34,673 bases of DNA from the NCBI GenBank assembly GCA_031372565.1, contig JANMLN010000120.1, positions 1 through 34,673 of the forward strand. The letters are read 5' to 3'. Positions 2,698-34,592 of the stretch are shown here, piece after piece. The translations under genes were made by a program, and so were the position numbers. The notes beneath the pieces are model-generated. The model was not told the origin of the DNA. It did not search any database and saw nothing but the letters and a program-made list of their open reading frames with translations. This stretch comes from Gemmatimonadota bacterium. GTDB lineage: Bacteria; Gemmatimonadota; Gemmatimonadetes; Gemmatimonadales; Gemmatimonadaceae. The first letter of the stretch is position 1, and every line of letters starts with the position of its first letter.

Positions 2698-2781
2698 GAA
2701 CAGCGGCCGAGGAGTGCGCCGCCCTGGTGCGAGTGGAGCCTGTGTTGCGCCCGTGCGGCCCGGATTCACGCGCGGGGAAGG

Positions 2782-5346: not shown

Positions 5347-5381
5347 ATTCGCCCCTGTTTCTCGAGCATCATCACGCCCGC

Positions 5382-18985: not shown

Positions 18986-19013
18986 CCGCGCGAACGCTCG
19001 GCGCCATCTGAGC

Positions 19014-19742
19014 ATGACCGCATCGCGTCTCGTGCTCAGTGCAGGCCTAGTCCCGGCAGGGGTGGCGCTGTACGGACTGCAGTTGCCGGTCGCGCCTGAT
19101 GCGGCCTTGGCGGCACTCGATGATCTGCGCGGGGACGCGGCGCTCACCGAACTGCCTTCGCGTGTGGCGGGGGCCGCGCCCAGTCGGCGGGCGGGCTATC
19201 TGGCTGGGCGCTGGTGCGCGCATCAGGCGCTGCTGGTCAGCGCACCTCACGTCGCGCACATGAGCATCGGGACCGGCGAGTTCCGTGAGCCGCTCTGGCC
19301 GACTGGCATTGTTGGCAGCATCTCCCACACGGCCGGTTACGCGCTGGCCGCTGCTGCGCCTCTGGGGGCGGTGCGTGCGATCGGGCTGGATGTGGAACGG
19401 TGGCTCGACGAGGACGCACCCGCGCGTATCGGTGCCGATCTCGCGGGTGAGGGAGAGCTCGAGGCACTCGTGGCTCGGACAGCTTGGCCTGCGGAGCGCG
19501 TGCTGACCGTACTCTTCTCCGCCAAAGAGACCATCTACAAGTGTCTGTTTCCCGACGTGCGAGCGTACTTCGGCTTCGAGACGGCGTGGGTCGAGAGCGT
19601 GGAACCGCGTGACGAGGCTGCAGGGCGGTTCGTGGCGCGGCTGACGGGCCCGCTGGGGCCGGCGTTGCCAGCGGGGCTCATGCTGCACGGGCGCTTTGCG
19701 TGCCGGGATGACGTGGTGGTGACGGCGCTCGTGCGTGGGTGA
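19014..19742 (+). CDS. 4'-phosphopantetheinyl transferase (EntD/Sfp-like; functional PfaE equivalent)
   Basis: RRAGYLAGRWCA, REPLWPTGIVGSISHT, IGLDVE, FSAKETIYK. ATG 28 nt after the pfaBC stop. Confidence 0.9.
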   Translation: MTASRLVLSAGLVPAGVALYGLQLPVAPDAALAALDDLRGDAALTELPSRVAGAAPSRRAGYLAGRWCAHQALLVSAPHVAHMSIGTGEFREPLWPTGIVGSISHTAGYALAAAAPLGAVRAIGLDVERWLDEDAPARIGADLAGEGELEALVARTAWPAERVLTVLFSAKETIYKCLFPDVRAYFGFETAWVESVEPRDEAAGRFVARLTGPLGPALPAGLMLHGRFACRDDVVVTALVRG

Positions 19743-19847: not shown

Positions 19848-22800
19848 CTACCGATGCTGCGCGAGACAACGGGCGTACTCCTTCGCCGCCTCCCCCGGAT
19901 CTTCCTTGAGTCGCTCCACGCGCACCGTGGGCGGCACGCACACCCGCGTGTATCCCATGATGCGCTCGATGAGCGCGCGCGGCTCGATCGTCCAGATGCG
20001 CACCGTCCCGTCCTGCGACGTGGAGAAGACGTGTTCGTTGTCCTCGCTGAACGCGACCGAGTTGACGGCGCCACGGTGACCGTCGAGTCGGAGCACTCCC
20101 GACCGCCCTGAGCGCGCCCAGACGTTCACCGTCCCCGTGGTGTCGCCCCCCGCGAGCAGCGATCCGGCACTGGCGAAGGACAGGCTGAGGATGCGACCAC
20201 GGGCACCATGCAGCAACTGGAACGGCATGATCGACGCGCGGTGCTCGGACGGGCGCGCGTAGAGGCCGATCTGGTTGTCGCTGAAATTGACCGCGATCGT
20301 GTCGCCGTGCGCGTCGAAGGTCATGGCGGTCCCGGTTGCACCAACGAGCTCATCCACCAGACTCGTCCCGTCCTTCGTGGACCAGAGGAAGGCCGTGCCG
20401 TCGAGAAAGGACGTGGCGCGGGTCGCGAGCGCCCAGCGGCCGTCGTCGCTGACCCGTGCGCGCAAGTCGTCCAGCGGATGCCCCTCGTCCTGTGAGAGCA
20501 CGCGCGGGACGGTCGTGGACGCTCCAACACGCCACGCGCCGCCGAGCCGCTCGTCGTCGAGGTACGTGACCATGGTCCCACTGGAGTCGAGCCATCGAGG
20601 CTTTCCGCCCAGCGTGATGTTCGCGATCGGCGCTGGCGGACCTCCCGCTGGCCACTCCCACACCGTCGTCGTGTTCTTGTCGACGGTCACCACGCGCATC
20701 GACGATCCCATGAACCGGAAGTCGCGCGCCCAGTGGGACGCCGAGTCGAACGTGGTGCGCAGCCGATCCGGATGTGCCTCGAAATCATGCGAAGCTTCGC
20801 GATCAGTCAGCGGCAAGACGGCAAGCCGCCCACCGCGCGAAATCGTCGCGATCGCGCTGTCCCCCGGACCCACGCGTAGCCGACCAAGTGAGCCAAGGCC
20901 GAGCGGCACCGTGAGCGGTTCCGGATCGTGGAACGTGCCCCAGATGCGCCCCGTCCCGTCGTCCGAGACGGTCACCAACGCATCGCCCCTGCCACTGACA
21001 TTCGCCCACGTGACGGCGCCCGCGTGCCCGGTGAACGGCAGGTAGGGGCACGGCACGTTGTGGTCGCTGCACTCATCGGCGATCGACCAGAGGTGTGCCG
21101 TGCCGTCGAGCGCGCCGGAGATCAGGGAGTCTCCGCCGAGGGTGAACTGCACGTTGGCGACAGCGCCACGATGTTGCCGATACCAGCGGATGCGCGACGC
21201 CCTCGCCACGTCGAGCACGGCCACGCCAGTCTCCGTTGCCACGGCCACGCGCGTGCTCTGATCGTTGAGCCGCACGCGCTTGATCTCGCTTCCGAGCTCC
21301 TGGTCAACCAGCACCTTCTGGCTGCCGACGCTCCAGACCATCACGCGTCCCGTGATGCTGCCCGCGACCGCGAGTTCACCGTCGGCGCTGAAGCGGATGT
21401 CGCGCCAGCCGCTCAAGTCGCTCATGGGAAGCCTGACGACAGGGTCTGCGGCATCCGGCGTCCACAGGAGGGCCGGCTCCGACCAGCAGGCGAAGATCAC
21501 GCGACGTCCGTCGCGACTCATGTCGGTGCCCGTCACCGAGCACGGCACCGAGGGCGGGAGCATCTGCCGTGTGGCCGATCCCGGAGCCGTCCCGAACCGG
21601 CAGATCGAAATCGTATCGGCGGACGCCCGACACCCACCAAGCACGAACCGGCCGTCCTGACTGATGCGCGGTTGTTCGACGGATGCGCCCACGGAATCTC
21701 CAATGGGGCGCGGTGCGCTCCTTCCGGAGAGATCGACCAGATGCAGCATGCCGACCGAGTCCGACACCACCGCATGTCGTGCCGACGGGTCGGCCGCCAA
21801 CCTGCTTCCTCCACGCGCGCCAGTGGCGACCACGCGCACCCCTGCGCCCGCAGAGTCCCAGACGCGCAGCGAACCGTCGCGCTTGAGCATGACCATGCGG
21901 GTCCCGGCAGCATCGCGCGCCACCTGCGCATCGGTGACGGAATCCTCGATGAAGATGGCCACCTGGGCATCGGCGATGCGACGCAGTGCTTCGATGTCCG
22001 GCCATTCGAAGGTGGCCTCGGTCGTCGCGCCGAGCTCGGCAACAAGTGCCGCGGCGATGGACGGATCGGTCACGGAGAAGTCGCGGATCGCCGCGCGCAA
22101 GTTCGCCGCCTTGGCCTCGTCGAGCGAGTCGCTGGTGACCGCGAGCAGGACCGCGGTGAAAAAGAGCGCCACGAGCCCGCCGGCCGCCGCTCCGATCATC
22201 CAGCGGCGTCGCGTGCGCCGCGTACGCTCCTGCCGGGCGCGCTCGTCCAGTTCACGTTGTTGCCGTTCGAGTCGTTCGTCCTCGACTGCCTGCTTGCTCT
22301 CTTCGAGGAACTGCTGCACCACGTCGAAGTCGTCCGACGCACGCGCATAGCGCTCCGCCCAGCCGCGCGTTGCGCCCAACGCCTCCCACTTGTCGCGCTG
22401 CGTGGTGTACTCGAGCCCGACCATGAGACCTCGCTCTCCGGCCATGGCCGAGCGCGCCGTCTGCACGAGCCACAGATAGGTGTTGCGCGCGCGGCGTTCC
22501 GTGTCCACCCACTCGGCGAGCCGCGGCCATTGCCGGATCAGACTCTCGTGCGAGATGTCGACGCGCGGGTTCGCCGGATCCCCGTCGCGTGACAGGTACA
22601 GGAAGTTGCGATCGTGCGCGCGAAAGGCGGCGATGACACGCTCCACCTCGGCACGATCCGCCCCGGTGGCCGCTGCCAGCGCGTTGATGCGACAGGGACG
22701 CCGTACGCTGCGCTGGCTGATGTCCGTATCCGTGAGCGCGCGGAAGATCTGCTCTGCGAGCGTGGCGTCCACGGTCGCGAGTGCATCGTTGGCGTCCTTC

Positions 22801-23717
22801 GCGAGTGCCCCTTCGAGTCCATCCGCGAGCAGGTAGTGCTCGATGTCGATCGGACCGGTCGCGCCGTTCGCGGCCCAGTGGTCGTACGTACGCTGGAGGG
22901 CGTGCTGCAGCACGGGCAGACGATCCGCACGATCTCCCAGCGCGTTGGCCAACCGGTCGACCAGGCGTGCCGTGAGTTTCGCGCCGGTCATCATCGCAGG
23001 ACCTTCGTTGGCCTGCCGGAGTTGATCGCGTGAGAGCCGCGGCACGAGGTAGCGCGCCTTGTTCATGGCTTCCGGCAGGCCGTGAAAGAGGTCGCAATCG
23101 CCGAGGAAGTCGCTGCGCATGGTGAGCGCCACGAATACGGGGGCGGTGCTCTCCGAGAGGCCGAGCAGCAGGTCGACGTAATCCGCGGCCTCGGCGCGCC
23201 GACGCGCCAGGTGCGCCCGGACCTCCACGGGCATCCGGTCGTCGTCACTCTCGGTTCCGCGGAACGCGAACAGCTCCTCGAACTGGTCCACGAGGATGAA
23301 CACGCTCGCCTTGGGATCGCGATGCTGTTCGATGAAATCGACCGCGCCTCCAGCAAGCGCCAGACGGATGGAGGCCTCGAGACCGTCCTCGCCCTCGACG
23401 GCCTCGGGGTGCCCGAACGCCCTGGCGAGTTCCGTCGCGAAGTTGTTCATCGGTGCGTCGCCCGGCTTGCAGATCACGGTGACCCACTGGTCTGCGCCCG
23501 CCACCAGGAACCCCGCGGCAAGCCGCGGGATGAGGCCGGCACGCACGAGCGACGACTTGCCGCTGCCAGATCCGCCAACCACCGGGAGGAAACGCGTCGT
23601 GTGCAGGATCTCCTGCAGTTCTGTGATCTGCTCGTCGCGACCGAAGAAGAGGTGCGAGTCGGTATCGAAGAACGGCCGGAGCCCGACGTACGGGTTGGGC
23701 GTCGTGGCGCGCGTCAC
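19848..23717 (-). CDS. nSTAND1-type NTPase + TM helix + WD40 beta-propeller sensor (about 1289 aa)
   Basis: GTG start overlaps the upstream TGA (GTGA) with SD GGAGGA. NPYVGLRPF..FFGR, Walker A GGSGSGKSS, Walker B ILVDQFEELF, MRSDF, LPVLQHAL, DISHESLIRQWPRL; coiled coil, then TM WMIGAAAGGLVALFFTAVLLAV; WD40 repeats such as GHRGAVNSVAFS...SQDGTVRIW. Confidence 0.9.
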   Translation of the reverse strand: MTRATTPNPYVGLRPFFDTDSHLFFGRDEQITELQEILHTTRFLPVVGGSGSGKSSLVRAGLIPRLAAGFLVAGADQWVTVICKPGDAPMNNFATELARAFGHPEAVEGEDGLEASIRLALAGGAVDFIEQHRDPKASVFILVDQFEELFAFRGTESDDDRMPVEVRAHLARRRAEAADYVDLLLGLSESTAPVFVALTMRSDFLGDCDLFHGLPEAMNKARYLVPRLSRDQLRQANEGPAMMTGAKLTARLVDRLANALGDRADRLPVLQHALQRTYDHWAANGATGPIDIEHYLLADGLEGALAKDANDALATVDATLAEQIFRALTDTDISQRSVRRPCRINALAAATGADRAEVERVIAAFRAHDRNFLYLSRDGDPANPRVDISHESLIRQWPRLAEWVDTERRARNTYLWLVQTARSAMAGERGLMVGLEYTTQRDKWEALGATRGWAERYARASDDFDVVQQFLEESKQAVEDERLERQQRELDERARQERTRRTRRRWMIGAAAGGLVALFFTAVLLAVTSDSLDEAKAANLRAAIRDFSVTDPSIAAALVAELGATTEATFEWPDIEALRRIADAQVAIFIEDSVTDAQVARDAAGTRMVMLKRDGSLRVWDSAGAGVRVVATGARGGSRLAADPSARHAVVSDSVGMLHLVDLSGRSAPRPIGDSVGASVEQPRISQDGRFVLGGCRASADTISICRFGTAPGSATRQMLPPSVPCSVTGTDMSRDGRRVIFACWSEPALLWTPDAADPVVRLPMSDLSGWRDIRFSADGELAVAGSITGRVMVWSVGSQKVLVDQELGSEIKRVRLNDQSTRVAVATETGVAVLDVARASRIRWYRQHRGAVANVQFTLGGDSLISGALDGTAHLWSIADECSDHNVPCPYLPFTGHAGAVTWANVSGRGDALVTVSDDGTGRIWGTFHDPEPLTVPLGLGSLGRLRVGPGDSAIATISRGGRLAVLPLTDREASHDFEAHPDRLRTTFDSASHWARDFRFMGSSMRVVTVDKNTTTVWEWPAGGPPAPIANITLGGKPRWLDSSGTMVTYLDDERLGGAWRVGASTTVPRVLSQDEGHPLDDLRARVSDDGRWALATRATSFLDGTAFLWSTKDGTSLVDELVGATGTAMTFDAHGDTIAVNFSDNQIGLYARPSEHRASIMPFQLLHGARGRILSLSFASAGSLLAGGDTTGTVNVWARSGRSGVLRLDGHRGAVNSVAFSEDNEHVFSTSQDGTVRIWTIEPRALIERIMGYTRVCVPPTVRVERLKEDPGEAAKEYARCLAQHR

Positions 23718-25930
23718 GTGTTCCTCCCCGCGAGCAGCGCGTCGACGGCCGCGGGATCGAACCCGGCGGCGCCGCTGGCAACGGGCGACATGTTCGCGAA
23801 CTGCAACTGTTCCGGCGTGCGTGCACTGGCCACATACAGCCCGAGCCGCGTGGGCAGATTCTCGTTCATCTTGAGCTTCATCGCCATCCAGTAACGCGAC
23901 TTGATCCACTGGTCGTTCACGGCGCCAAAAAAGAAGATCACGTTCGCGCTGTCGGTGATCCACTTGCGGAACTGTTGCTCGGCGGCCTGCGGGCCGTCGG
24001 CGCTCGTCGCCTGCGCAGCCTCATCCATCGGGTCGGTGTAGATGACGGGCGTCCCCTTGGACTTGAGGTACCGGATGAGCGGGATCGCCTGCTTGAGGTC
24101 GTCGACGTGGACATCCACGAACACCGAATGCGCCGCGTGGACTGCCGTTGCCGCCGCGTCGGCCGCGCGGGTCCGCTCGGCCAGCATGCGATCGCGGTGG
24201 ACAACAATGCGATCCGCCATCCTGGCGAAGCGCACGCGATCGAACGCGAGCTCGTGCCGCTCGCGGTCGGTGTTGTCGAGCTCGGCGACGAAGCGGCCGT
24301 ACGCCGTGGTGGCGGGAATCGTCGCCGCGTCGTTCACCAGGACCAGCTGCGGCTTCTGGAGCTGTGCGCCGAGTTGGAGCTGTCGCACGGGGAAGGTGCC
24401 GGGCGCGCCAGGACCATCGGCAGTTGCGCCGTCGAGCACGTCGCCCGCGTCCTCGTTCAAGATGTGCACGAACAGGTCGGCGTTCGCCGCGATCTCGCGC
24501 ACGCGCCGTTCGTGGCCCGTTTCGGTGAACTCGTCGGGCGCGTCCTGGTTCGGCACGGCCGGCAGGACCTCGATCCCCTTGGAGGCCAGGACGCGGATGA
24601 GCTGCGGTCGCATGCTGAGCTGGAAGCTCGGCGTGATGGCCGTCGCGGCGAGGAAGACGCGGAACGGCGGCTCGCCCGAGGCGGATTGCGCCACCATCGT
24701 GGCCGATGGCGTCGGGCGCCCGGCGTCCGCAGGCGGCGGTGTCGCCGCAGCCATGGTTGCCAGCTCCGGTTGCGCCGGCGACGCGAGGGTCACCAGCTCC
24801 GGTTGCGCCGGCGTCACCGACTCGATGCTGAACAGCACGCCGTGCTTCGGTCGCAGATAGAGTACCGGTGTCGCCCACTCGCTCGTTTCGCCATCGTAGA
24901 GCATGCGACGCGCGTCGGCCACGGCTTCGTCCACCGGCACGCCGGTGGCGAGCCGCTTGTAGAAGAGCGCGGCGAACTTGATCGCCGCGATGTCCGAGAT
25001 CGGATACTGCATGGCCAGCACCGCAGGAATGCCGCCGGCAAGCAGCGATGCGGCCACGCCACCGAACGGATTGATCGCGCCGCGCGCGCTCGTCTCCGCC
25101 GTCTTGCACGCGTTGAGGAAGACGAGCTGCGGCAGCGGCTTCGAATTGGCGATCATCTTGCGCACCTGATCGCCCTCCATGCGGTGCGCCGACTCATCCG
25201 CATTCTCCATGAGCAGCGCCCCGCGCCCCGTGTCCGGGTCGAAGTCGCCGTGCCCCATGAAGTGCACGATGTGGTACCCCGGGCGCGCGTTGGCGAGCGC
25301 GTCAGCGATCGCCTCCTCGGTGGCGGTCTCGAGCACGTCGATCTTCCAGCCGATCTTCACGAGTCCGAACGCATCCTCGATGCGTCCCTGCTCCTTCTTG
25401 AGGTTGAGCGGAGCGGTGCCCGTCGGGTTGCTGACGATGAGCAGGATCTTGAGCGTGGACTGGAACGAGATGGGCGGCGTTTCCTTCGCGACGTCGATCG
25501 TGCGCACCAGCACGGTGCGGTCGCCGAACGCGAGCGGGGGATCGCTCGGCGTGCGATTGGGCGTGAGGATCTCCCACGGCAGCGCGGCCAGGACCGCGGC
25601 CTCGTCGTCGGCCGTGATGTTGAGGCGAACGCGCACCCCCTTCTCGGCGCCGCCCATCAGCTCCATCAACAGGTCGCGGATGTTGCCGGAGAACAGATTC
25701 TGGAAGAGCTTGACGCCGAGGGCGCGCACATCGGGCTTCGGCGCGCTCACGGCGGGGGTTTCGGGTTCGGGTTCGCGCATCACGCCGATGCCGCGTGCCA
25801 GGCCCGTGAGGTTCATCAACTCGTCCGGCAGCGTGAGCGTCCCCGTCACGGAAGCCGCGTCGTCCGTTTCTGCGATGACCGTGAACGTCGGCTTCTTGCC
25901 GACGATGCGAATGGTCAGGTTCTTGTCCAT
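23714..25930 (-). CDS. CHAT (caspase HetF-associated) protease with two C-terminal TIR/DUF4062-like alpha/beta domains (738 aa)
   Basis: LAALPWEIL, catalytic HIVHFMGHG and LVFLNACKT, GIPAVLAMQYPISD..A..FAALFY, EWATPVLY. C-terminal FRVFLAAT...ADLFVHIL and SVFVDVH...ANVIFFFG; the TIR-like assignment is tentative. ATG at 25930. Confidence 0.85.
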   Translation of the reverse strand: MDKNLTIRIVGKKPTFTVIAETDDAASVTGTLTLPDELMNLTGLARGIGVMREPEPETPAVSAPKPDVRALGVKLFQNLFSGNIRDLLMELMGGAEKGVRVRLNITADDEAAVLAALPWEILTPNRTPSDPPLAFGDRTVLVRTIDVAKETPPISFQSTLKILLIVSNPTGTAPLNLKKEQGRIEDAFGLVKIGWKIDVLETATEEAIADALANARPGYHIVHFMGHGDFDPDTGRGALLMENADESAHRMEGDQVRKMIANSKPLPQLVFLNACKTAETSARGAINPFGGVAASLLAGGIPAVLAMQYPISDIAAIKFAALFYKRLATGVPVDEAVADARRMLYDGETSEWATPVLYLRPKHGVLFSIESVTPAQPELVTLASPAQPELATMAAATPPPADAGRPTPSATMVAQSASGEPPFRVFLAATAITPSFQLSMRPQLIRVLASKGIEVLPAVPNQDAPDEFTETGHERRVREIAANADLFVHILNEDAGDVLDGATADGPGAPGTFPVRQLQLGAQLQKPQLVLVNDAATIPATTAYGRFVAELDNTDRERHELAFDRVRFARMADRIVVHRDRMLAERTRAADAAATAVHAAHSVFVDVHVDDLKQAIPLIRYLKSKGTPVIYTDPMDEAAQATSADGPQAAEQQFRKWITDSANVIFFFGAVNDQWIKSRYWMAMKLKMNENLPTRLGLYVASARTPEQLQFANMSPVASGAAGFDPAAVDALLAGRNT
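24760..24813. repeat. 33-bp-period tandem duplication in the CHAT protein linker (PAQPEL x2)
   Basis: CCAGCTCCGGTTGCGCCGGCG at 24760-24780 and 24793-24813. Confidence 0.8.
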
Positions 25931-25958
25931 GCGGGTGCCGGTCGTGAGGTCCGCGTGC

Positions 25959-28900
25959 CTACGCGGTGAGCCACTGCAGGAGGTGCGCGTGCACGTCGGG
26001 ATTGGCCAGATACGCGACGTGTGAGATGCCCTGCGGCCCCGTGAGCGCAAGCGAGTCGGCAATGGGGAACATCGCCGCGCCGTTGCTGCCGGCGGTGCCG
26101 GCCGAGGGTACCACGAGGTCATGTCCGTCGCCAAAGAGCGAATTCAGTGACTTGTCGAGCACGAGGTTCAACAAGGCACCCGGGCTCGCGGTATAGTGGG
26201 AACTGACCGCGAAGTAGCGCGTGTCGGCTCCGGTCGTGCGCGGCCCCGCATTGAGTCCCGTGAGAAAGGTGCTGCCGTTCTGCATGGCCATGAGGCCATC
26301 GAGGCCCTTGGCGGCGCCCACGCCAACCGTCTTGACGGTGGTGATGATGCCGTCGAGCACCTCGGTGGTCGGCATCCCGGGCACGCAGCAGATCGCGGTC
26401 GAAAGCACATCCACCATGGTGCCCGCGCGGGTTGGATCAAACAGCGCACTCCCCGCATTGGGCGTGCCGAGCATGGCCACGCGGCGCACCATCACCGAGC
26501 GCGCACCCATGCCCAGTTCGGACTGTCGCTCCGCCAGTGCGCGTGCCACGAGGCCGCCGCGCGAGACGGCGAGCACGTCGAGCTCGAGCGCGATGTCGGC
26601 CGGGAGCCGTTTGACGAACTCGCGCGCGTTCTCGAGCGGATCCTGCGAGAGCGTGGTGTGGTCGAAGGCAAGGACGCGGCCGCCGTAGGCCGCGTCGAGA
26701 CTCGCCATCACGGTCGCTGGCAGCACGCCAAATGTGCCGGCGGCTCGGCCGAACGGCTGGTGGAGCAGGAGCAGTGCGCGTCCCTGCCGCATGCGCGCCC
26801 AGTCGTCGGTGGTCATCTCGGCGTCGCGGATGGCGTCCGGACTCGCCGCCCGCACGGGCCGAAGCGCATAGGGGCGGTACCGCGATTCCCACTGGAACGA
26901 GAGGTAGGTGCCCGCAGCGCTCAAGATCGGGTTCACGAACGGTGCAAGCAACACGGAGGCCGCCTTGAGCACGGCGCCCGTGACGCTCACGCCGCGCGTG
27001 CCGGCCTCGGTGGCCGGGCCCGTCGTGTTGGCGGCGCCGACGGGGAGCACGAAGCGCTGCATCGTGGGAGGCGCTCCGCTGGCGTCGCGTGTTGCGGCCT
27101 CTGCGGTCGGCAGGTGCCATCGCACGCCGCCGAGCGAATCGGTGGTGACGACGATCTGCATCATGTCGCGCGGTGGCGCCGGAAGGTCGATCGACACGCT
27201 GGCCGAGCCCTGCGTGTCGCGTGTGGCGCTCGTGGCCTGCAGCTGATCCAGCGTGATCGTCTTGGCGACGGTGATGCCCTGATCCGTGAGCGCGCGGAAG
27301 AGCGGCGCGTTCGCGCCACTCGTGGCTGAGGCGCCGTCGGTGATCGTGGCGACCCCGGTCGCGCCCTCCGTGCTGACGGTGGCACCGGAGAGAATCGCCG
27401 GCGCGCCGCTCAGCGCGGCCGAACGCTTGCGTCGGATCGTGAACGACCGATCCACCGTGGTCCAGTCGCCGAGTGCGGCGATCGGCGTCTCACTCTCGGG
27501 TTCTCGCGTGGCCGGCGCCTTGATGGCGGTTTCGAACAGCAGCTGCAACGCCGACATGCCCGCGATGGCGCGCACGCCTGCGGTCTTGAGGAAGTCGAAC
27601 GACGTCTCGGCTGTCGTGGCGTAGAGGCGGATCGTTTCCGTTCCCTCGGACTGCACGACCCCCGGTCCCTCCAACTTGAACGGAAATGCATCCGGGAGCT
27701 TGAAGCGCTGCCGTTCGCCGGGCTTGGTCAGGACGTCCACCGTCTTGCCTGCAGCGAGACGCTCCTGGGCGCCCTCCTCGGACGGCCAGAGCCGCGAAAT
27801 CGAACCGCCGACGCCGAAGTCGAGCAGGTTGACCCACAGGTCCGCGGTGTGGTTGTTCGTCAGCCGCACGCCCACGAACTCGCCGCGATCCTCGATGACA
27901 ATCGCACCGCCGTCCTCTGGGCGCGGCGTCGCCACTTCCCACGACGTGTCCGATGTCGAGCGCAGCAGCTCCATCGTCACCTTGCCTGCCAGCGCCGATG
28001 TCCGATCCGGATTGCGCAGCTCCATCGCGAGCCGATAGCGTGCGCGACTCGCAAGATTGTCGGCCACGGCGCGCCACTCGGACTCGCGCTTTGGCGGGAG
28101 CGCCACCTGCCCGCTGCTGCCTGTCACGATCCACGTCGGGTCGGCGAGCGCGCCGAGTTCGGCGCCGACGTCGCTCGGAGCAGCCAAGGCGCGCGCCGGA
28201 GCGAGCTGCACGCGCAGCGTCCACGCTTCGTCGTCCTGCACCACGCGCACCAGCGGCGACTCGTCCAGTGCGGTGCGGAGCTTCGAGGCGGTCTCGCTCG
28301 CGCTCGGCACCAGCTGGACCGCGAGTCGCTGGTCGCCGGCCGCGTAGCGCGTGAGCACCGCGCGCGCGCTCGCGGCGATCGCGTTGGGTGTTACCTCGCT
28401 GACGACCTTCGCCTGGCTGGTGAATGCGCTGACGCTCGTGACCTCCAGTTCGCCGATCGGCGTGGCCCCTTCGGTCGTGCTCGTGCCGGCCGCATACACG
28501 GCGTATCGCGAGCCGACCGTGGTGCCGAGCGCGGCGCCGGCGGCCAGCGTGGCCTCGACTGCCCCCTCGTCGCGCACCGACACCACGACGTACGCCATCG
28601 GGCGCACGTCCTCGGTGCCGAACAGCTTCCGATCAATCGTCCCCTCGATCTGCGGATGCTGCTTGCCCTCGCGAAACGCCACGACCTGCGCCGCGGCCCG
28701 TTCGAACAGGTCCCGGTAGGTGACCGGACCGCTCGCCTCGGCGAGCGCCTGGGTGAGGTAGTAGGTGAGCGCACCGTGATGGGCCGGCGTGGCCGTGGGA
28801 ATGATCAACTCGCCCGAGAGTTCGTCGTGTCGGCAGCCCGCGATGAGCACATAGCGGCTGCCCAGCGGCAGCCAGCCGCTCGGCCCGATGACCGCGGCAG

Positions 28901-29459
28901 GGCCGCGCGCGGCGGCGGGCGTTGGGGACTTGGGCAACTGCTCCACGGGGCGCGGATCGTCCGGCACACCGCGCGTGCCCACCAGCGTCGGGTCGACGTC
29001 GCGCGTGATGTTGCCCGAGTGGCACGCGTCCACGATGAGCGTGATGTGTTCGGTCTTGGTGCCGAGCGCCACGAGCCAGGCGTGGATCTCGTCGTCGGTG
29101 ATGTCGATGCTACCCTCGCCGCTGCCGTCGTGCGCGGTCCCGTCCACCGGCACCAGCGTGCAATCCCAGCCGCTCGGCTTGTCGCCCTCGCGGTCACGGA
29201 TGCGCGAGCCGTGACCGGCGTAGTAGAACGCCACGATGTCGCCGGGCTGGGTGGACGCCTCGAAGGTGGCGAGCGCTCCGAGGATGCCGTCGCGCGTGGC
29301 GGCTTCGTCGAGCAGCGTGGTGAAGACGGTAAAGTCGAACTTGGATCGGAGCAGGTCCTGCATCACCTGCACGTCGTTCGTGCAGCCCTCGAGTTCCTTG
29401 ACGCGCTGGTACTTGTTGATGCCGATCAGAAGCGCACGCTTGGTGGGTATGGCGGACAT
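25959..29459 (-). CDS. Caspase-like peptidase C14 + DUF4384-like domain + C-terminal alpha/beta-hydrolase fusion (1166 aa)
   Basis: KRALLIGINKY, LEGCTNDV, catalytic FYYAGHGS and IVDACHSG, HGALTYYL, QHPQIEG; middle VRLTNN..DLWVNLLDFG..GSISRLWP..GTETIRLYAT; hydrolase FDHTTLS.DPLENA, AVSRGGLVAR, LGTPNAGS, DLVVP, SHVAYL. ATG at 29459. Confidence 0.88.
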   Translation of the reverse strand: MSAIPTKRALLIGINKYQRVKELEGCTNDVQVMQDLLRSKFDFTVFTTLLDEAATRDGILGALATFEASTQPGDIVAFYYAGHGSRIRDREGDKPSGWDCTLVPVDGTAHDGSGEGSIDITDDEIHAWLVALGTKTEHITLIVDACHSGNITRDVDPTLVGTRGVPDDPRPVEQLPKSPTPAAARGPAAVIGPSGWLPLGSRYVLIAGCRHDELSGELIIPTATPAHHGALTYYLTQALAEASGPVTYRDLFERAAAQVVAFREGKQHPQIEGTIDRKLFGTEDVRPMAYVVVSVRDEGAVEATLAAGAALGTTVGSRYAVYAAGTSTTEGATPIGELEVTSVSAFTSQAKVVSEVTPNAIAASARAVLTRYAAGDQRLAVQLVPSASETASKLRTALDESPLVRVVQDDEAWTLRVQLAPARALAAPSDVGAELGALADPTWIVTGSSGQVALPPKRESEWRAVADNLASRARYRLAMELRNPDRTSALAGKVTMELLRSTSDTSWEVATPRPEDGGAIVIEDRGEFVGVRLTNNHTADLWVNLLDFGVGGSISRLWPSEEGAQERLAAGKTVDVLTKPGERQRFKLPDAFPFKLEGPGVVQSEGTETIRLYATTAETSFDFLKTAGVRAIAGMSALQLLFETAIKAPATREPESETPIAALGDWTTVDRSFTIRRKRSAALSGAPAILSGATVSTEGATGVATITDGASATSGANAPLFRALTDQGITVAKTITLDQLQATSATRDTQGSASVSIDLPAPPRDMMQIVVTTDSLGGVRWHLPTAEAATRDASGAPPTMQRFVLPVGAANTTGPATEAGTRGVSVTGAVLKAASVLLAPFVNPILSAAGTYLSFQWESRYRPYALRPVRAASPDAIRDAEMTTDDWARMRQGRALLLLHQPFGRAAGTFGVLPATVMASLDAAYGGRVLAFDHTTLSQDPLENAREFVKRLPADIALELDVLAVSRGGLVARALAERQSELGMGARSVMVRRVAMLGTPNAGSALFDPTRAGTMVDVLSTAICCVPGMPTTEVLDGIITTVKTVGVGAAKGLDGLMAMQNGSTFLTGLNAGPRTTGADTRYFAVSSHYTASPGALLNLVLDKSLNSLFGDGHDLVVPSAGTAGSNGAAMFPIADSLALTGPQGISHVAYLANPDVHAHLLQWLTA

Positions 29460-29490
29460 GACGTGGAGGGGAGGGGCGGGGGGAGAACGA

Positions 29491-29540
29491 TCACCGTGTG
29501 AACGAGCGTGGCGCTCAGCCCCGCTCGCTCCCACGTGTGA
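29491..29540 (-). other. Intergenic stem-loop between the peptide gene and the caspase gene
   Basis: Minus strand TCAC-a-CGTG-g-GAGCGAGCG-g-GGC-[TGAGC]-GCC-a-CGCTCGTTC-a-CACG-GTGA gives about 20 paired bases. No U-tract follows. Confidence 0.6.
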
Positions 29541-29565
29541 CTTCAACGTGCGGTGCGCGCCGTGC

Positions 29566-29721
29566 TCAGCCGCGACCGCCGCCCCCCGACGAGGGCTTCG
29601 CGCCGGGATCACGGTCGCCACCCTTGACGGGCTTCGGTGCCGGGTCGCGGTCACCGCCGCGCGTGGGCTTGGGCGCCGGGTCGCGGTCGCCGGCCTTGAC
29701 GGGCTTGGGGGTCGGGTTCAT
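29566..29721 (-). CDS. 51-aa repeat peptide MNPTPKPVKAGDRDPAPKPTRGGDRDPAPKPVKGGDRDPGAKPSSGGGGRG
   Basis: ATG 4 nt after the kinase stop, with GGAG 7 nt upstream. Three 12-aa (36-bp) repeats in which GDRDP is invariant while its codons differ synonymously (ggc/ggt, cgc/cgt, gac/gat, ccg/ccc). Confidence 0.75.
   Translation of the reverse strand: MNPTPKPVKAGDRDPAPKPTRGGDRDPAPKPVKGGDRDPGAKPSSGGGGRG
29593..29706. repeat. 36-bp tandem repeat, about 3.2 copies, encoding the GDRDP peptide
   Basis: GGGCTT recurs at 29593, 29629, 29665 and 29701 with similar sequence between. Confidence 0.9.
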
Positions 29722-29725
29722 GGGA

Positions 29726-32647
29726 TCACTCCGAAAGAAGGGTGGGGTCACGCACGATGGCGCCGCCGCGAAGCGCGACAGCGCGGGGAGAAGCCAGTGC
29801 GGCAAGCCGGCGCCGGAATGCTGCGGCGCCGCGCGTGTCACCGATAGCATCCGCAATCTCGGCGCGCAGCGCAAGAGACGGACGCAGATAGAACAGGAAC
29901 GACACGGGCGTCGGTCCGTCCAGCCCGTTGGCCACCACCTGTGCGGCGGCCGCTTCGCGATGTCGCAGCAGCAATCGTGCATACAGCAGTCGCTCCGCCG
30001 CCAAGGCGCCGCCCGGATCCCACGCCAACTGTGGGCTCGGAGGGAGCGGCGTGCTCAGGAGCGCCGCCAGTTGCGCTCGCGCCTTGGCCGTGTCGCCCTG
30101 AGCAAGCGTGGCGTGCGCCGCGGTGGCCTGCGCAAAGAGCGCCGTGGCCCTGCTCGTGTCCGTCGCAGCGCGCTTGGCCAGCGCCGCGGCGATCGCGATG
30201 GTGGCGTCGGGGCGCCCGTGCGTCGCGCCGTACAGCGCGAGGATCCAGCAGCGCTCCGCGGTGGAGCAGCGGGCGTAGTCGTCGCCAAAGCGGCGCTGGT
30301 CGCTCACGGCAACATCACGTGCGACCGAGTCGAGCGCCGGTGTCACCGTGGCACCCAGCAACAGGAGTGATGCACCGCCGTCGCCCCGAGTCATGGACCG
30401 GGCGATGTACTTCGGGATGTCGCCTGAGCGATCCTGCGCCATCAGCACGGCGACGAGACCCATCAGGGCGCTCTCGCGTTCAGGGCCCGCCCCCGCACGC
30501 CCCGCGACGGTATCGAGTTCGGTCACGGCCTCGAACGCCGCAGCCGCACAGGCGAGGTTCGCGCCGCGCCCGCCGAGCACCATCGCCGCCGAGAGGGTCG
30601 CGAACGGATCCGTACGCTCCGCCTTGGCCCAGTTCATGCGCGCGGCACCGTCCCGCACGCAGGCGGTGGCGAAGGTGAGGTGCGAGGCGAGGACCGAGTC
30701 CGGCACCGCCGCGAGCATGCGATCGACGAGTGGCGCGGCGCCCACGGCGTCGCCGCGGCGCAGGCGAATCTCGATCGGGTGCAGCAGCCCGTGGACCGCC
30801 GATGGATCGAGCGCACGGGCGCGCGCGAACGCGACATCGGCCACGCTGTCCGCGTCTCCCGCCGACGTCACGAGATGGATGTGCGTTTCGCCGAGCTGCA
30901 TCCATGCCGCCGCGAACTCCGGATCGAGCGCGACCGCGCGTTGCAACTCGGCACTTGCGGAGTCGGCCGACCCGTTCAGATACGCGGCATAGCCGCGCGC
31001 GTAGTGCGCATACTGCGCCGGCATCGGCTTGCCAATCGCGGCGCGTACCAGCGTCTGGGCTTCGGAGGGGCGGTGATCCCAGCTGGCGGCCTGCGCGCCG
31101 CGCAGCGCCGCGAGTGCGAAGAGCGAGTCTGACCGGACCGCCTCGCGATACAGCTCGAGCGCGCGCGCTGGCTGCGCACGGCGGAACGCCGCTTCGGCCG
31201 CGAGGAAGCTGGCGACCGCCGAGGGATCTCGATCGCGCCAGGCGGCTGCCAGGTCCTTCGATTCGCCCCCCGGTACGAGGCGCGGCAGCAGCTCGTTGAC
31301 CGCGCGCAGGCCCGCACGCCAGAGGTCGTTCGGTACACCGCTCGCGCGCGGGCGCAGCACGACGCTGTCGCTCCCGACATCGACCAGTTCGAGGAGCACG
31401 TCGGCGGAATCGCCGCGCAGGACGACCCGCCCGGTGACGTAATAGCCGGCCCGCTGCTCGATCGCGATCCGGCGCGCGAGGGCAGGGTCGAGTCGCGCAC
31501 CGCCGGCGCGCTGCAGCTCGGGTGGCATCAGCCGCCAGCCATCGATCCAGCGCAGCGCGCCGCGCTTGTCGAGCGCGCTGCCGATCATGGTCGCCACGTC
31601 CTCGCCAGCGCCCGTGCTGCCGCCCACGGAACCGGGTGCTTCGAGGGGGAATCCGACGATGCGATTGCGATCGAGACCCGAGGCGCTGGCCGTGCCTTGC
31701 CGCAGCACGAGTGCGATGACGCCGAGTGTGACCACGGCAAGGCCGCCCGCGACGAGTCGTCGCGCCGTGCGCGTCGGCGGCACCACGGGCACGGACGAGG
31801 AGATCGTGCCGGGGGTGCGCTCCGCCTCCCGCAGCGCATCCCGCAGCGCGCCCGCCGTGGGGAAGCGATCGGCCGGTGTCTTTGCCAGCGCACGTTCGAT
31901 GACCGCCGCGAGCGCCGGCCCGACCGACGGGCGCACGGTACGGATGCTCGGTACAGGGTCGACCGCGTGGCGCGCACGAATCGCCTGCGTCGTGGGTCCG
32001 GTGAACGGTGGGCCGCCGACGAGCATTTCGTAGAGCACGCACGCGAGCGAGTAGATGTCGCTCCGTCCGTCGAGGCGGTCGGCCGACGCCTGTTCGGGGC
32101 TCATGTACGACGCCGTGCCCACGGTCACGCCCGTGGCGGTCAGCGATTCGTCGTTCTCGGCGTCCGTGGCGCGCGCCACGCCGAAGTCGGCGAGCACGGC
32201 GCGACCATGATCCAGGAGGATGTTGCTCGGCTTGACGTCACGGTGCACGAAGCCGGCCGCGTGTGCATGGTCGAGGGCATCCGCCACTTCGCAGGCGAAC
32301 TGCACGGCCTGCGGCACGCTCAACTGTCGTTCGCGCACGAGCAGGTGCTGCAGCGTGTCGCCTGCCACGACCGGCATCGTGAAGTACGGCACGCCGTGGA
32401 ACTCGCCCGTGTCGAGCACGGGAAGGATGCCGGGGTGCGTAAGCCCGGAGACAATGCGGATTTCGCGCGTGAAGCGAGCGAGCCCGACCCGGGCGGCGAG
32501 CTCCGGCTGGAGGAGCTTCAGGGCAACGTCCTGACCCGTGGTACTGTCGCGTGCGAGGTACACCGTGGCCATGCCACCGCGACCGAGCTCGCGCTCAAGG
32601 CGATACCGGCCCCCCACGAGCTCATCCATTGGCAGGACGACGTCCAT
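29726..32647 (-). CDS. Hanks-type Ser/Thr protein kinase + TM + TPR-like helical repeats (about 973 aa)
   Basis: LGRGGMATVY, VALK, HRDVKPSN, DFG, GTASYMSPEQ, SDIYSL; TM LVAGGLAVVTLGVIALVL; TPR-like segments (ELQRAVALDPEFAAAWMQLG). ATG at 32647 (or 32629). Confidence 0.92.
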   Translation of the reverse strand: MDVVLPMDELVGGRYRLERELGRGGMATVYLARDSTTGQDVALKLLQPELAARVGLARFTREIRIVSGLTHPGILPVLDTGEFHGVPYFTMPVVAGDTLQHLLVRERQLSVPQAVQFACEVADALDHAHAAGFVHRDVKPSNILLDHGRAVLADFGVARATDAENDESLTATGVTVGTASYMSPEQASADRLDGRSDIYSLACVLYEMLVGGPPFTGPTTQAIRARHAVDPVPSIRTVRPSVGPALAAVIERALAKTPADRFPTAGALRDALREAERTPGTISSSVPVVPPTRTARRLVAGGLAVVTLGVIALVLRQGTASASGLDRNRIVGFPLEAPGSVGGSTGAGEDVATMIGSALDKRGALRWIDGWRLMPPELQRAGGARLDPALARRIAIEQRAGYYVTGRVVLRGDSADVLLELVDVGSDSVVLRPRASGVPNDLWRAGLRAVNELLPRLVPGGESKDLAAAWRDRDPSAVASFLAAEAAFRRAQPARALELYREAVRSDSLFALAALRGAQAASWDHRPSEAQTLVRAAIGKPMPAQYAHYARGYAAYLNGSADSASAELQRAVALDPEFAAAWMQLGETHIHLVTSAGDADSVADVAFARARALDPSAVHGLLHPIEIRLRRGDAVGAAPLVDRMLAAVPDSVLASHLTFATACVRDGAARMNWAKAERTDPFATLSAAMVLGGRGANLACAAAAFEAVTELDTVAGRAGAGPERESALMGLVAVLMAQDRSGDIPKYIARSMTRGDGGASLLLLGATVTPALDSVARDVAVSDQRRFGDDYARCSTAERCWILALYGATHGRPDATIAIAAALAKRAATDTSRATALFAQATAAHATLAQGDTAKARAQLAALLSTPLPPSPQLAWDPGGALAAERLLYARLLLRHREAAAAQVVANGLDGPTPVSFLFYLRPSLALRAEIADAIGDTRGAAAFRRRLAALASPRAVALRGGAIVRDPTLLSE

Positions 32648-32875
32648 CCCTTCCCGAACCAGGGTTTGGCCCCGAGTCGAGCACGTCGCGCGCACCCGGC
32701 GGGGCGCGCAGACTCCCGGGATGTGGTGCGTCGGCCCCTCCGTGGGCCGTAGCCTTGGAAAAATAGGGCTGGTGGCAGGGGGCCGCTAGGCAAATACCGC
32801 GCTCGCGGGGTATTCATCGGCGCGCACGCACGCTCGGTGCTTACTTGCAGCATCCCCAAGCGGAGTTCACCGCTC

Positions 32876-33847
32876 ATGCGATCGCTTCTCCGTGCGTCCG
32901 TGCTCGTGCTCTCCACGCTGGCCGCCGAACGCGTCGGGGCGCAGCCGCCATCGGCGAGCGCGGCGACCGGCGCCACCACCGCCAATCAGCCCTCCGCCGC
33001 CGACCTGCAGCGTGCGGCCGCCCTGTTCAACGCGAGCGACTGGACAGCCGCGCACGCCGCGTACGCCGCGCTCGCGGCGCGCTTTCCGGCGCACCCGCAG
33101 TCCCGCTTCCGCACCGGGGTCACGCTCACGGAGCTCGGGCGAGCGCGAGAGGCGGAGCCTCTCCTGCGTCAGGGGGAACAGCTCGGCATTCCAGCCGGAC
33201 AGGCGGCCTATCGGTTGGCCGAGTCGTTGGCCGAGCAGCAGAAGGGCGACGCCGCGCTCCTCGAGCTCGAGCGCGCCCTCCGCGGCGGCGTCGTGTTCCC
33301 GTCGCAAACGCTCATCGCCAACGTCCATCTGGCGTCGCTCAAGCAGCACCCGCGCTGGCCCGCCGTGCTGCTGGCGTTCGACGCCGTCACGCAGCCGTGC
33401 CAGGCGGACCCCCGCTTCCGGCAGTTCGACTTCTGGGTCGGCGACTGGGAGGTGCGCGGCACCGGAGCGCCTGCTGGGTCCCCCGCCTCGCGCAACCGCA
33501 TCACCCTCGAGGAAAACGGCTGTGTGGTGCAGGAGCATTGGGAGGGCCAGAGTGGTTCCACGGGACAGAGCTTCAACCTGTTTGACCGCAGCATCGGCAA
33601 GTGGCGGCAGACCTGGGTGGACAACGGCGGCGGCCAGCATGACTACGTCGGCGAACTCAAGGATGGTCACATGGTCTTCGAAGGGACGACGCCGGCGCCG
33701 CGGGGCGCACTCGGCCGCATCCCGACCAGGCTCACGCTGTTTCACCTCCACGCCGACACCGTGCGGCAGTTCGCGCAGGTGAGCAACGACGGCGGCACGA
33801 CGTGGACGACGTCGTACGATCTCACGTACGTGCGACGGAAGCCGTGA
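32876..33847 (+). CDS. Secreted protein: signal peptide, TPR repeats and a C-terminal beta-rich domain (DUF1579-like)
   Basis: GGAG upstream of ATG 32876; signal-like MRSLLRASVLVLSTLAAERVGA-Q; TPR-like helices; FRQFDFWVGDWEV, WRQTWVDN, SNDGGTTW. Confidence 0.8.
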   Translation: MRSLLRASVLVLSTLAAERVGAQPPSASAATGATTANQPSAADLQRAAALFNASDWTAAHAAYAALAARFPAHPQSRFRTGVTLTELGRAREAEPLLRQGEQLGIPAGQAAYRLAESLAEQQKGDAALLELERALRGGVVFPSQTLIANVHLASLKQHPRWPAVLLAFDAVTQPCQADPRFRQFDFWVGDWEVRGTGAPAGSPASRNRITLEENGCVVQEHWEGQSGSTGQSFNLFDRSIGKWRQTWVDNGGGQHDYVGELKDGHMVFEGTTPAPRGALGRIPTRLTLFHLHADTVRQFAQVSNDGGTTWTTSYDLTYVRRKP

Positions 33848-33926: not shown

Positions 33927-34592
33927 ATGGCCGACCACCCCTTCGTGTCGCTCGCGTTCGATCGCCTCCCGAGCGACGAGTCGCTCTCCCGTGCGCGGGA
34001 CTTCCACGCGCAGATGCAGCGCCGCCGCACGACGCGCCACTTCTCGCGCGAGCCGGTACCGCGCGAATGGATCGAACTCGCCATCCGCACCGCAGGCACC
34101 GCGCCGAGCGGCGCGCATCAGCAGCCGTGGACCTTTGTGGCGGTTTCCGATGAGGCGCTCAAAGCCGAGATCCGTCGTGCGGCGGAGGAGGAAGAGCAGC
34201 AGTTCTACCGCGGGCGAGCGCCGGAGGAGTGGCTGAGCGCGCTGGCACCGCTCGGGACCGACGAGCACAAACCGCATCTCACCGACGCGCCCTGGATCGT
34301 GGTCCTCTTTCGGCAGGCGCACGGACTCGAGGCCGATGGTCGCAAGCGCACCTTCTACTACACGCAGGAGTCGTGCGGCATCGCGGCAGGCCTCTTCATC
34401 GCGGCGGTGCACACCATGGGATTGGTGTCGTTGACGCACACCCCCAACCCGATGGCCTTTCTCGGCGAGTTGCTGGAGCGGCCATCGAACGAGAAGGCGA
34501 TGCTGGTGATGCCGGTCGGCTTTCCGGCAGCCGACGCACGCGTCCCCGACATTCAGCGCAAGGCACTCGAGGAGATCGCGATCTGGAGGTAG
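33927..34592 (+). CDS. Nitroreductase-family flavoprotein, iodotyrosine deiodinase (IYD)-like
   Basis: RRTTRHFS, TAPSGAHQQPWTFV, lid AAEEEEQQFY and KPHL, YYTQESCGIA, LTHTP, MPVGFP. Confidence 0.85.
   Translation: MADHPFVSLAFDRLPSDESLSRARDFHAQMQRRRTTRHFSREPVPREWIELAIRTAGTAPSGAHQQPWTFVAVSDEALKAEIRRAAEEEEQQFYRGRAPEEWLSALAPLGTDEHKPHLTDAPWIVVLFRQAHGLEADGRKRTFYYTQESCGIAAGLFIAAVHTMGLVSLTHTPNPMAFLGELLERPSNEKAMLVMPVGFPAADARVPDIQRKALEEIAIWR

Follow-up and report, generated by a model that had tools for sequence, protein, structure and literature searches.

The stretch of DNA analysed here, called the window, comprises 34,673 nt of contig JANMLN010000120.1 from a Gemmatimonadota genome (GCA_031372565.1), and the genomes nearest to it are Gemmatimonadota metagenome-assembled genomes (MAGs). 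Positions 19848..32647 hold a cassette of five open reading frames (ORFs), all on the minus strand, encoding a kinase, a small repeat peptide, a caspase-hydrolase, a CHAT-domain protein and a STAND protein. This cassette is real and conserved, and its last three genes form a core that recurs across phyla; it looks like a candidate system for cell death or defence. The five genes are:

32647..29726, minus strand: kinase, 973 aa
29721..29566, minus strand: repeat peptide, 51 aa
29459..25959, minus strand: caspase-hydrolase, 1166 aa
25930..23714, minus strand: CHAT protein, 738 aa
23717..19848, minus strand: STAND protein, 1289 aa, with a GTG start and a 4-nt overlap with the CHAT stop

An earlier interpretation of this DNA, made from its letters alone and referred to below as the sequence-only reading, had described five co-oriented genes separated by 4, 106, 28 and -4 nt, and the exact coordinates bear this out. 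It had also reported intact catalytic motifs: the clan CD His-Cys dyads, the kinase motifs and the Walker motifs can indeed all be read from the sequence of the cassette enzymes, and those of the CHAT and STAND proteins are invariant among homologues. The G+C content of the window is approximately 70%, so that long spurious ORFs are plentiful on both strands; the five minus-strand ORFs of the cassette are genuine genes. A simple scan for terminator-like sites, which is crude and carries little weight at 70% G+C, found none between the cassette genes, and the sole site it returned lies inside the kinase gene.

For comparison with other genomes, 26 full-length homologues of the CHAT protein were aligned and the alignment was used to retrieve 78 loci, one genome per species. 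The loci were tested by tblastn with ten segments of the window proteins, and by profile hidden Markov models (HMMs) run over all ORFs, one for the CHAT C-terminal module (A2) and one for the NTPase (A3). In the HMM recount the module was present at 26 loci: at 24 it stood complete behind a CHAT domain, at L068 it was cut by the contig end, and at L019 it was carried by a non-CHAT ORF. An nSTAND1 gene followed the module gene directly at every locus with downstream sequence (24/24; L001 and L068 were left out of this count because their contigs end there). The tblastn survey gave the same adjacency at 21 of 21 loci and scored no adjacent nSTAND1 at the 55 loci without a detected module; one of these 55, L053, has the module and an nSTAND1 gene directly after it according to the HMMs. 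The CHAT stop abuts or overlaps the STAND start at all 22 loci measured, an arrangement of translationally coupled genes. At L019 (L019:1905-7537) a DUF4062-like module lies behind an unassigned N-terminus of approximately 250 aa, directly before an nSTAND1-WD40 gene, and the link between module and STAND protein therefore holds without CHAT.

Caspase-type genes were found at 38 of the 78 CHAT-seeded loci. On the same strand and upstream, they occurred at 12 of the 15 module loci having at least 3.5 kb of upstream sequence, and at L004 the caspase-type gene lies downstream of the STAND gene, not upstream; the other two of the 15, L006 and L047, have none. Pfam assignments placed a caspase-DUF7379 protein (approximately 1080 aa), a CHAT-module protein and an nSTAND1 protein together in Variovorax brevis (L011), an alphaproteobacterium (L058) and Sulfotelmatobacter (L004); the trio of caspase(-hydrolase), CHAT-module and nSTAND1 genes recurs in Gemmatimonadota, Acidobacteriota, Alpha- and Betaproteobacteria. 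The order kinase-peptide-caspase-CHAT-STAND was complete at six Gemmatimonadota loci (L007, L026, L031, L033, L039, L048) and was also seen, truncated where the contigs end, at L001 and L008, though the proteins are 31-60% identical to those of the window. Homologues thus adjoin one another in other genomes, so that an objection which the sequence-only reading had raised against its own proposal, namely that they might not be co-located elsewhere, falls. Neither kinase nor peptide was found at any of the 78 loci outside Gemmatimonadota. Since the trio spans phyla while the kinase and peptide are confined to this one, what travels is, on these comparisons, the three-gene core, which has been elaborated into the five-gene form in the Gemmatimonadota lineage; the five-part set that had been proposed as the unit is to be revised accordingly.

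The same distribution bears on whether, in Gemmatimonadota, two separate modules merely lie side by side, a kinase-peptide-caspase unit and a CHAT-module/nSTAND1 dyad, with no hand-over from CHAT to caspase. The confinement of kinase and peptide to Gemmatimonadota would be expected in that case, and so would the 106-nt gap between peptide and caspase, the CHAT-STAND dyads without a caspase at L006 and L047, and the arrangement at L061, where a kinase, a different repeat peptide (L061:15182-15560; Gly/Pro/Lys-rich units with a period of about 11 residues) and a caspase-DUF7379 gene stand in this order beside a CHAT gene that lacks the module, with no nSTAND1. However, a caspase(-DUF7379) gene adjoins the CHAT-module/nSTAND1 pair at proteobacterial and acidobacterial loci that have no kinase, caspase-type genes accompany CHAT at the 38 loci counted above, the gene order is identical in the six complete and two cut loci in spite of the divergence of the proteins, and no terminator-like site separates the genes in the crude scan. 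We consider two independent modules to be unlikely.

The STAND protein has the following features:

22452-23693, minus strand (aa 9-422): nSTAND1 NTPase (Pfam PF20703, 1.2e-82)
22143-22199, minus strand (aa 507-525): transmembrane (TM) helix predicted from hydropathy, preceded by an Arg-rich stretch
19851-21860, minus strand (aa ~620-1289): WD40 beta-propeller region (Pfam WD40 and PDB WD40 matches)

All 23 homologues aligned share its motifs G-x-x-G-x-G-K-S and D-Q-F-E-E, with K54 of Walker A and D144 of Walker B unchanged. The NTPase starts at residue 9, so that there is no N-terminally fused effector domain, and the upstream gene is a candidate effector for it. Fused counterparts of such a pair exist. 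Peptidase_C14 is fused N-terminally to nSTAND1 at L012:14853-18815, L014:2261-6679 (minus strand) and L064:17224-20442, with WD40-type matches in L012 and L014; TIR_2 is fused to nSTAND1 at L067:1163-3244 (minus strand); and close relatives of the CHAT protein are fused to NACHT or AAA_16 NTPases. The fusion genes at L012, L014 and L064 adjoin both a CHAT gene and a second caspase gene, of the caspase-DUF4384(-DUF7379) type. These arrangements give the strongest comparative support for reading the CHAT-module protein as a detachable N-terminal effector of the STAND protein, and they favour reading the free caspase as a second tier. We infer that an order of action from STAND through CHAT to caspase/lipase would fit the loci with a caspase or TIR domain fused to nSTAND1. 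The proposal that a STAND protein drives a clan CD protease, already made from the sequence, gains comparative support from them.

A TM-like segment directly follows the NTPase in 16 of 17 homologues, and the WD40 propellers are probably located outside the cytoplasmic membrane with the NTPase in the cytoplasm. The sensor region differs from the rest of the cassette in its rate of change: in the closest full-length relatives (L002 and L003), the first 400 residues of the STAND protein are 71-83% identical and the sensor region 24-55%, compared with 55-84% for the remaining cassette proteins of the same genomes. A receptor under diversifying pressure would be expected to diverge in this way. 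In other lineages the STAND protein has, in place of the WD40 region, an RDD membrane domain or no recognisable domain. At an acidobacterial locus (L034:15462-19497), a vWA protein is encoded upstream of a CHAT-nSTAND1(RDD) dyad, and after the dyad come genes for a PD40-repeat kinase and a clostripain-family (C11) peptidase.

The CHAT protein is made up of two parts:

24869-25717, minus strand (aa 72-354): CHAT domain (Pfam CHAT, 2.4e-30)
23732-24664, minus strand (aa 423-733): tandem alpha/beta/alpha (DUF4062/TIR-like) module of two domains

On the evidence of its fold and residues it is a clan CD CHAT-fold protease with a His-Cys dyad: all 26 aligned homologues retain both H227 and C275, and an AF2 model (pLDDT 78) had SAVED-CHAT (8tl0, 1.7e-10) as its best Foldseek match. 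Matches at a probability of 1.00 comprised SAVED-CHAT, the anti-sigma factor DdvA, Craspase TPR-CHAT and separase. When the C-terminal 320 residues were modelled alone (pLDDT 85), they formed two tandem three-layer alpha/beta/alpha domains with a long helix between them. A profile search of 1.84 billion representatives returned 1462 relatives of this module, 205 of them at E<=1e-30. A separate profile search of the PDB gave none; the TIR-NLR protein RPP1 ranked 14th in the Foldseek list for the module. Some relatives exceed the DUF4062 cut-off of 24.7 bits (P0171, 26.2; P0176, 29.6; P0181, 29.6; the L019 ORF, 30.1 bits). The DUF4062 matches of the relatives fall on the first domain of the module, with a few weak TIR/DUF4062 matches on the second. 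A comparison with the ESM Atlas, to be taken as a lead only, gave 0.95 to a DUF4062 cluster and pointed to TIR clusters as well. The label 'CHAT-TIR-like' of the sequence-only reading therefore survives in part: two tandem alpha/beta/alpha domains are present and relatives pass the DUF4062 cut-off, but the CHAT protein of the window itself has no Pfam match to TIR or DUF4062. No invariant Glu was found in the aligned module, and for this reason we would expect it to act as an adaptor or in oligomerisation rather than as an NADase.

The N-terminal partners of the module were scanned in 56 of its top 150 relatives, which were picked by length class and not at random. TIR_2 was the partner in 25 of the 56 (one of them also ParA-like), DUF4062 in eight, CHAT in five and EAD11 in one; 17 of the 56 had no assignment. 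By these domain assignments, the module sits behind swappable N-terminal effector domains. One further relative, P0245 (862 aa), carries the module behind a 'SAV_2336 N-terminal domain-related' region (380.6 bits).

The caspase-hydrolase has three recognisable segments:

28623-29441, minus strand (aa 7-279): metacaspase-like C14 domain (Pfam Peptidase_C14, 7.1e-29)
27612-27884, minus strand (aa 526-616): weak DUF4384 match in the linker region (1.5e-4, below cut-off)
25962-26774, minus strand (aa 896-1166): DUF7379 alpha/beta-hydrolase (Pfam PF24096, 6.6e-43)

Its His-Cys dyad consists of H83 and C146, and metacaspases are the nearest solved structures to the p20 region. In the PDB alignment, C26..D29 and D144 match the metacaspase motifs C-x-N-D and D-x-C-H-S-G, whose residues we take to build an Arg/Lys-specific S1 pocket, and the caspase is probably Arg/Lys-specific. 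Orthocaspases cleave after basic residues, as stated in the abstract of a published account (PMC6426788). The linker region was uninformative in the ESM Atlas (0.78). The hydrolase triad S966, D1114 and H1147 is invariant in 17 of 17 homologues. Homologues of this domain carry the precomputed labels PGAP1, LCAT and abhydrolase, from which alone the description 'lipase-like' is taken; no literature on DUF7379 was found. A hydrophobic segment before the hydrolase domain was considered as a membrane anchor and rejected, being present in the window protein and not conserved among homologues.

The sequence-only reading had cleavage of this protein free a lipase-like effector. Seven of the nine kinase/peptide loci (window included), namely L007, L008, L026, L031, L033, L039 and L048, encode a caspase of approximately 670-690 aa with no hydrolase, so lipase release cannot be the general output and is branch-specific at most. 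DUF7379 also occurs fused to CHAT. Downstream of the L033 cassette lies a convergent pair (L033:16129-20229, minus strand) of a TCAD7 (ternary-complex-associated domain 7)-CHAT gene followed by a separate DUF7379 hydrolase gene, and tblastn located the same DUF7379/CHAT segments at L039 (about 16.2-18.3 kb, minus strand); at both loci the caspase of the cassette has no hydrolase.

The kinase of the Gemmatimonadota add-on is built as a receptor:

31853-32605, minus strand (aa 15-265): kinase domain (Pfam Pkinase, 1.7e-45)
31700-31756, minus strand (aa 298-316): TM helix with an Arg-rich N-flank
29729-31660, minus strand: TPR-containing C-terminal region of about 640 aa, with weak TPR matches

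The kinase residues K44, D137 (HRD) and D154 (DFG) are intact, and orthologues that are 52-90% identical occur at 10 Gemmatimonadota loci. For the sensor segment of the kinase (KINC), identity is 80% at L001 and 44-55% at seven further loci, in step with the kinase domain; the L009 counterpart aligned over just 191 residues, at 28%. The TPR region is predicted to lie outside the membrane and the kinase domain in the cytoplasm. The single TM helices of the kinase and the STAND protein had been overlooked, and the location of the sensors is to be revised: both are predicted to be exposed outside the membrane, which would make them receptor-like and not cytosolic.

With two such sensors, the cassette could serve non-immune transmembrane signalling (envelope stress, development or cell-cell communication), in which both receptors would control regulatory proteolysis in the manner of HetF or DdvA and the output would be regulation, not death. 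A kinase sensor that is conserved and not diversifying is in keeping with such a role, as are the housekeeping genes in the flanks, the CHAT fold, which matches the transmembrane anti-sigma factor DdvA as well as SAVED-CHAT, and a weak similarity to HetF (85.6 bits versus a cut-off of 1200). The STAND sensor argues otherwise, for it diverges much faster than the rest of its protein, as immune receptors do. The cassette, moreover, stands in unrelated genomic contexts in four phyla or classes, a sign of mobility; relatives of its module have TIR, EAD11 and ParA-TIR partners typical of conflict systems; a TCAD7-CHAT and DUF7379 pair lies next to the L033 and L039 cassettes; and no sigma factor, anti-sigma factor or transcription factor is encoded in the cassette. 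We regard a purely regulatory role as doubtful.

The second add-on gene encodes a proline-rich peptide of 51 aa with three tandem units of the core [DE]-R-D-P-x-[PA]-K-P. Its ATG is preceded by a GGAG motif 8 nt upstream and lies 4 nt past the kinase stop, and at the DNA level it coincides with a 36-nt tandem repeat of 3.5 copies at 29593-29717. This ORF, with its repeat in frame, recurs between the kinase and caspase genes at eight other loci, where the motif [DE]-R-[DE]-P occurs 7, 6, 7, 5, 4, 2, 6 and 9 times, compared with three times in the window. The unit is 12 or 13 residues long, with a period of 36 or 39 nt that is always a multiple of three, and the D-R-D-P core is kept through synonymous differences between units. 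The number of units changes even between close relatives (three motifs in the window versus seven in L001, though the neighbouring proteins are 80-90% identical). The synonymous changes, and a frame kept despite varying repeat number, indicate that the peptide is coding. Asp follows the Arg in 43 of 43 units and the Lys is present in 42 of 43, the units having been picked by a pattern that fixes R, P and the last P. The peptide has no signal peptide and no Cys, and no model for it exists in Pfam, NCBIfam or PADLOC. A CRISPR-like or RNA element was ruled out by the head-to-tail arrangement without spacers, the period and the synonymous unit differences, and a role as kinase substrate was ruled out because the repeats of L026, L031 and L048 contain no Ser, Thr or Tyr. 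By analogy with PCi, the small inhibitor of a caspase cascade described below, we infer that the peptide may be a multivalent pseudo-substrate or buffer of the caspase.

The peptide might instead be a polyprotein precursor that an Arg/Lys-specific caspase cuts once per unit into many proline-rich signal peptides of 12-13 aa, perhaps read by the TPR domain of the kinase. Its invariable position between receptor kinase and caspase, the one invariant Arg and near-invariant Lys of each unit, the regular period in two to nine copies and the repeats without Ser, Thr or Tyr are all compatible with this, and peptide-processing sub-systems are a known accessory of conflict systems in the passages of Kaur et al. 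cited below. Against it stand the finding that neither the cassette nor its surroundings show a conserved signal peptide, leader, Cys or exporter, and the topology, which would put the TPR region of the kinase and a cytoplasmic peptide on opposite sides of the membrane unless the cell lysed. We hold a precursor to be very unlikely. A bolder form is a death-coupled alarm, in which STAND activation would set off the protease cascade, the peptide would be cut at the one conserved Arg of each unit, many identical proline-rich products of 12-13 residues would leave the dying cell and the extracytoplasmic kinase TPR domains of neighbours would read them. This would be a long shot indeed; if true, bacteria would have a signal whose architecture resembles that of a eukaryotic polyprotein pheromone or cytokine precursor.

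Outside the cassette, the window contains the following genes:

3709-19742, plus strand: pfa-type polyunsaturated fatty acid/polyketide synthase set, convergent with the cassette
32837-33847, plus strand: TPR-containing ORF, divergent from the kinase gene
33927-34592, plus strand: nitroreductase-family gene

The pfa-type set includes a PfaD-family enoyl reductase (664.8 bits, above cut-off), a PfaA-type KS-AT-ACP-KR-DH protein (1501.6 bits), a KS/CLF-AT-FabA-type dehydratase protein and a PPTase. Within the PfaA-like gene, a tandem repeat of 315-321 nt (2.7 copies, 8859-9712) corresponds to repeated phosphopantetheine-binding (ACP) domains. Two ORFs at 30-2769 (minus strand) have weak sub-threshold matches to Y-family DNA polymerase IV (42 bits) and ImuA/RecA (52.9 bits) and could represent a mutagenesis pair of the imuA-imuB type; the region also has a 33-nt tandem repeat (1580-1652). 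Neither the TPR ORF nor the nitroreductase gene is kept beside the cassette at other loci, and the flanks change from genome to genome. Pfam and library scans of the window ORFs found no cas genes or cyclase domains, the window has no CRISPR-like array and Rfam gave zero matches. That the cassette works independently of CRISPR, as had been proposed, agrees with these scans.

On balance, we judge it probable, though far from assured, that the cassette is a self-contained, horizontally shuffled STAND-NTPase/caspase conflict system for regulated cell death or defence, with a three-gene core acting in the order STAND, CHAT, caspase and a kinase/peptide add-on in Gemmatimonadota. The fast-evolving STAND sensor would meet a ligand outside the cytoplasmic membrane, and the cytoplasmic NTPase would then oligomerise. 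The TIR-like module would dock CHAT on the oligomer, where proximity would activate it as the initiator protease. CHAT might in turn cleave and activate the second, probably Arg/Lys-specific, caspase, as SAVED-CHAT does with PCaspase, and the caspase, here with a lipase-like hydrolase domain, would damage the cell. In the add-on, the kinase could provide a second, conserved input and the peptide could buffer the caspase; the threshold-setting role that the sequence-only reading had given to these two is, like each cleavage step, hypothetical.

Several observations weigh against this proposal. At L006 and L047, whose flanks are fully covered, no caspase lies within 10 kb of the CHAT-STAND dyad, and at the seven kinase/peptide loci named above the caspase has no DUF7379 domain. 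The TIR-like character of the module is weak in the window protein: among 23 module members, Pfam found TIR_2 in two (best E 0.02) and DUF4062 in one, hhalign of the module with one TIR domain (L058) gave a probability of 5.6%, and Foldseek against the PDB returned generic two-domain Rossmann-like matches only, with TM-scores of 0.2-0.3. No polypeptide fusing the module to a STAND domain was found among longer proteins at E<=0.001, itself weak evidence. The extracytoplasmic topology is predicted solely from hydropathy and the positive-inside rule. In the repeat peptide, Pro follows the conserved Lys and an acidic residue the conserved Arg, neither of which makes an obviously good protease site. 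Finally, the flanks are housekeeping genes (the pfa-type synthase here, PS decarboxylase, MCP and others elsewhere) and form no defence island.

A protease cascade under an oligomerising NTPase is the logic of the animal apoptosome. The cassette, read as a conflict system, would offer an NLR-type, CRISPR-independent version of such a cascade in several phyla; the only CHAT-to-caspase cascade that we found reported for bacteria is the CRISPR-linked one. Three of its features deserve attention: a STAND NTPase and a propeller sensor that the membrane apparently separates, a tandem TIR-like adaptor that is swappable and invariably precedes nSTAND1, and a conserved repeat peptide whose copy number shifts between close relatives (3 vs 7). 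The catalytic residues, the three-gene core and the optional two-gene add-on define targets for mutagenesis.

The closest functional parallel is the SAVED-CHAT/PCaspase system of a type III-B CRISPR locus in Haliangium ochraceum. According to passages of the preprint that describes it (bioRxiv 10.1101/2023.06.23.546230), oligomerisation driven by the sensor activates CHAT, which cleaves the caspase, and the locus also encodes the kinase PCk and the small inhibitor PCi; the background that the sequence-only reading had given on all four proteins agrees with these passages. Like that locus, the cassette has CHAT, a separate C14 caspase, a Ser/Thr kinase and a small protein, and the best match of its CHAT fold is 8tl0. 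Unlike it, the window has no SAVED, no source of cyclic oligoadenylate, no cas genes and no sigma factor. The sensor of the cassette is a separate nSTAND1-TM-WD40 protein coupled through the tandem DUF4062/TIR-like module, its caspase carries a hydrolase, its kinase is a TM receptor, and its small protein is a tandem-repeat peptide whereas PCi is, in the same passages, a CI-2-like inhibitor. No SAVED domain was detected by Pfam in the CHAT protein, and the SAVED_CHAT model of PADLOC aligns to CHAT only (aa 159-386 with positions 102-298 of 498 in the profile).

No system model of PADLOC-DB 2.0.0 fits the cassette. Its matches were generic: PD-T4-6/mad6 kinases, a 'caspase' model, and SAVED_CHAT and BovA in their CHAT part. 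For the STAND protein there were just negligible DpdH matches, and for the peptide none. A description of the cassette was not found in the literature, where the supplements and source data of Kaur et al. and of the bioRxiv preprints lay outside the scope and may list the neighbourhood. The proposal that the system is undescribed thus stands as far as PADLOC 2.0 goes and is to be tempered in that nSTAND1 and the pairing of caspase with alpha/beta-hydrolase are themes already described, as passages of the work of Kaur et al. show. This work, on NTP-dependent conflict systems of multicellular bacteria, gave nSTAND1 its name (Kaur et al. 2020, PMC7159879; Kaur et al. 2021, PMC8195603) and states that caspase domains of ternary systems always occur with a neighbouring alpha/beta-hydrolase (Kaur et al. 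2020, PMC7159879). The systems treated there share with the cassette the caspase/alpha-beta-hydrolase pairing, kinases, TIR domains, peptide-processing accessories, variable effectors on a constant adaptor and repeat sensors (PMC7159879, PMC8195603), and the caspase and alpha/beta-hydrolase that are paired in MoxR-vWA systems are present here as a fusion. In contrast to them, the window lacks a core of the MoxR-vWA, VMAP, GAP1 or EACC1 kind, and no EAD was recognised in it: Pfam and library scans found neither a MoxR ATPase nor a vWA protein in it, the NCBIfam model caspase_w_EACC1 scored 42 bits versus a cut-off of 140, and no EACC1-type small TM gene lies beside the caspase. The CHAT-module/nSTAND1 dyad, the TM-anchored WD40 sensor and the repeat peptide are not described in the passages of Kaur et al., the full papers and source data being outside the scope of this comparison.

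Two further groups of systems resemble the cassette in part. FxsC, according to passages of a preprint (bioRxiv 10.64898/2026.10.19.760177), consists of an active TIR and an inactive TIR-like FxsC-C domain and is paired with a downstream NTPase-sensor gene. As in these FxsC/FxsT dyads, an upstream effector gene is followed by an NTPase-sensor gene; the TIR effector is displaceable there and a peptide system often lies nearby. The cassette differs in having no ParA, CHAT as the effector and nSTAND1 as the NTPase. The TIR forms of the module (approximately 500 aa) match NCBIfam FxsC_Nterm below its cut-off, and homology of the module to FxsC-C is a lead. Apaf-1-like and Avs/NLR-like STAND receptors, as presented in passages of a further account (PMC13581612), likewise combine a STAND NTPase and a WD40 sensor that controls a caspase-family protease, whereas the cassette encodes the protease apart from the STAND protein, has a TM helix between NTPase and propellers, and includes a second protease gene. 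By analogy, the cassette works most like the SAVED-CHAT/PCaspase cascade, but the absence of SAVED and of any CRISPR or CBASS signal source places it outside that family. On its domain content, it falls within the STAND/caspase conflict systems as broadly defined by Kaur et al., outside the named MoxR-vWA, GAP1 and EACC1 sub-systems.

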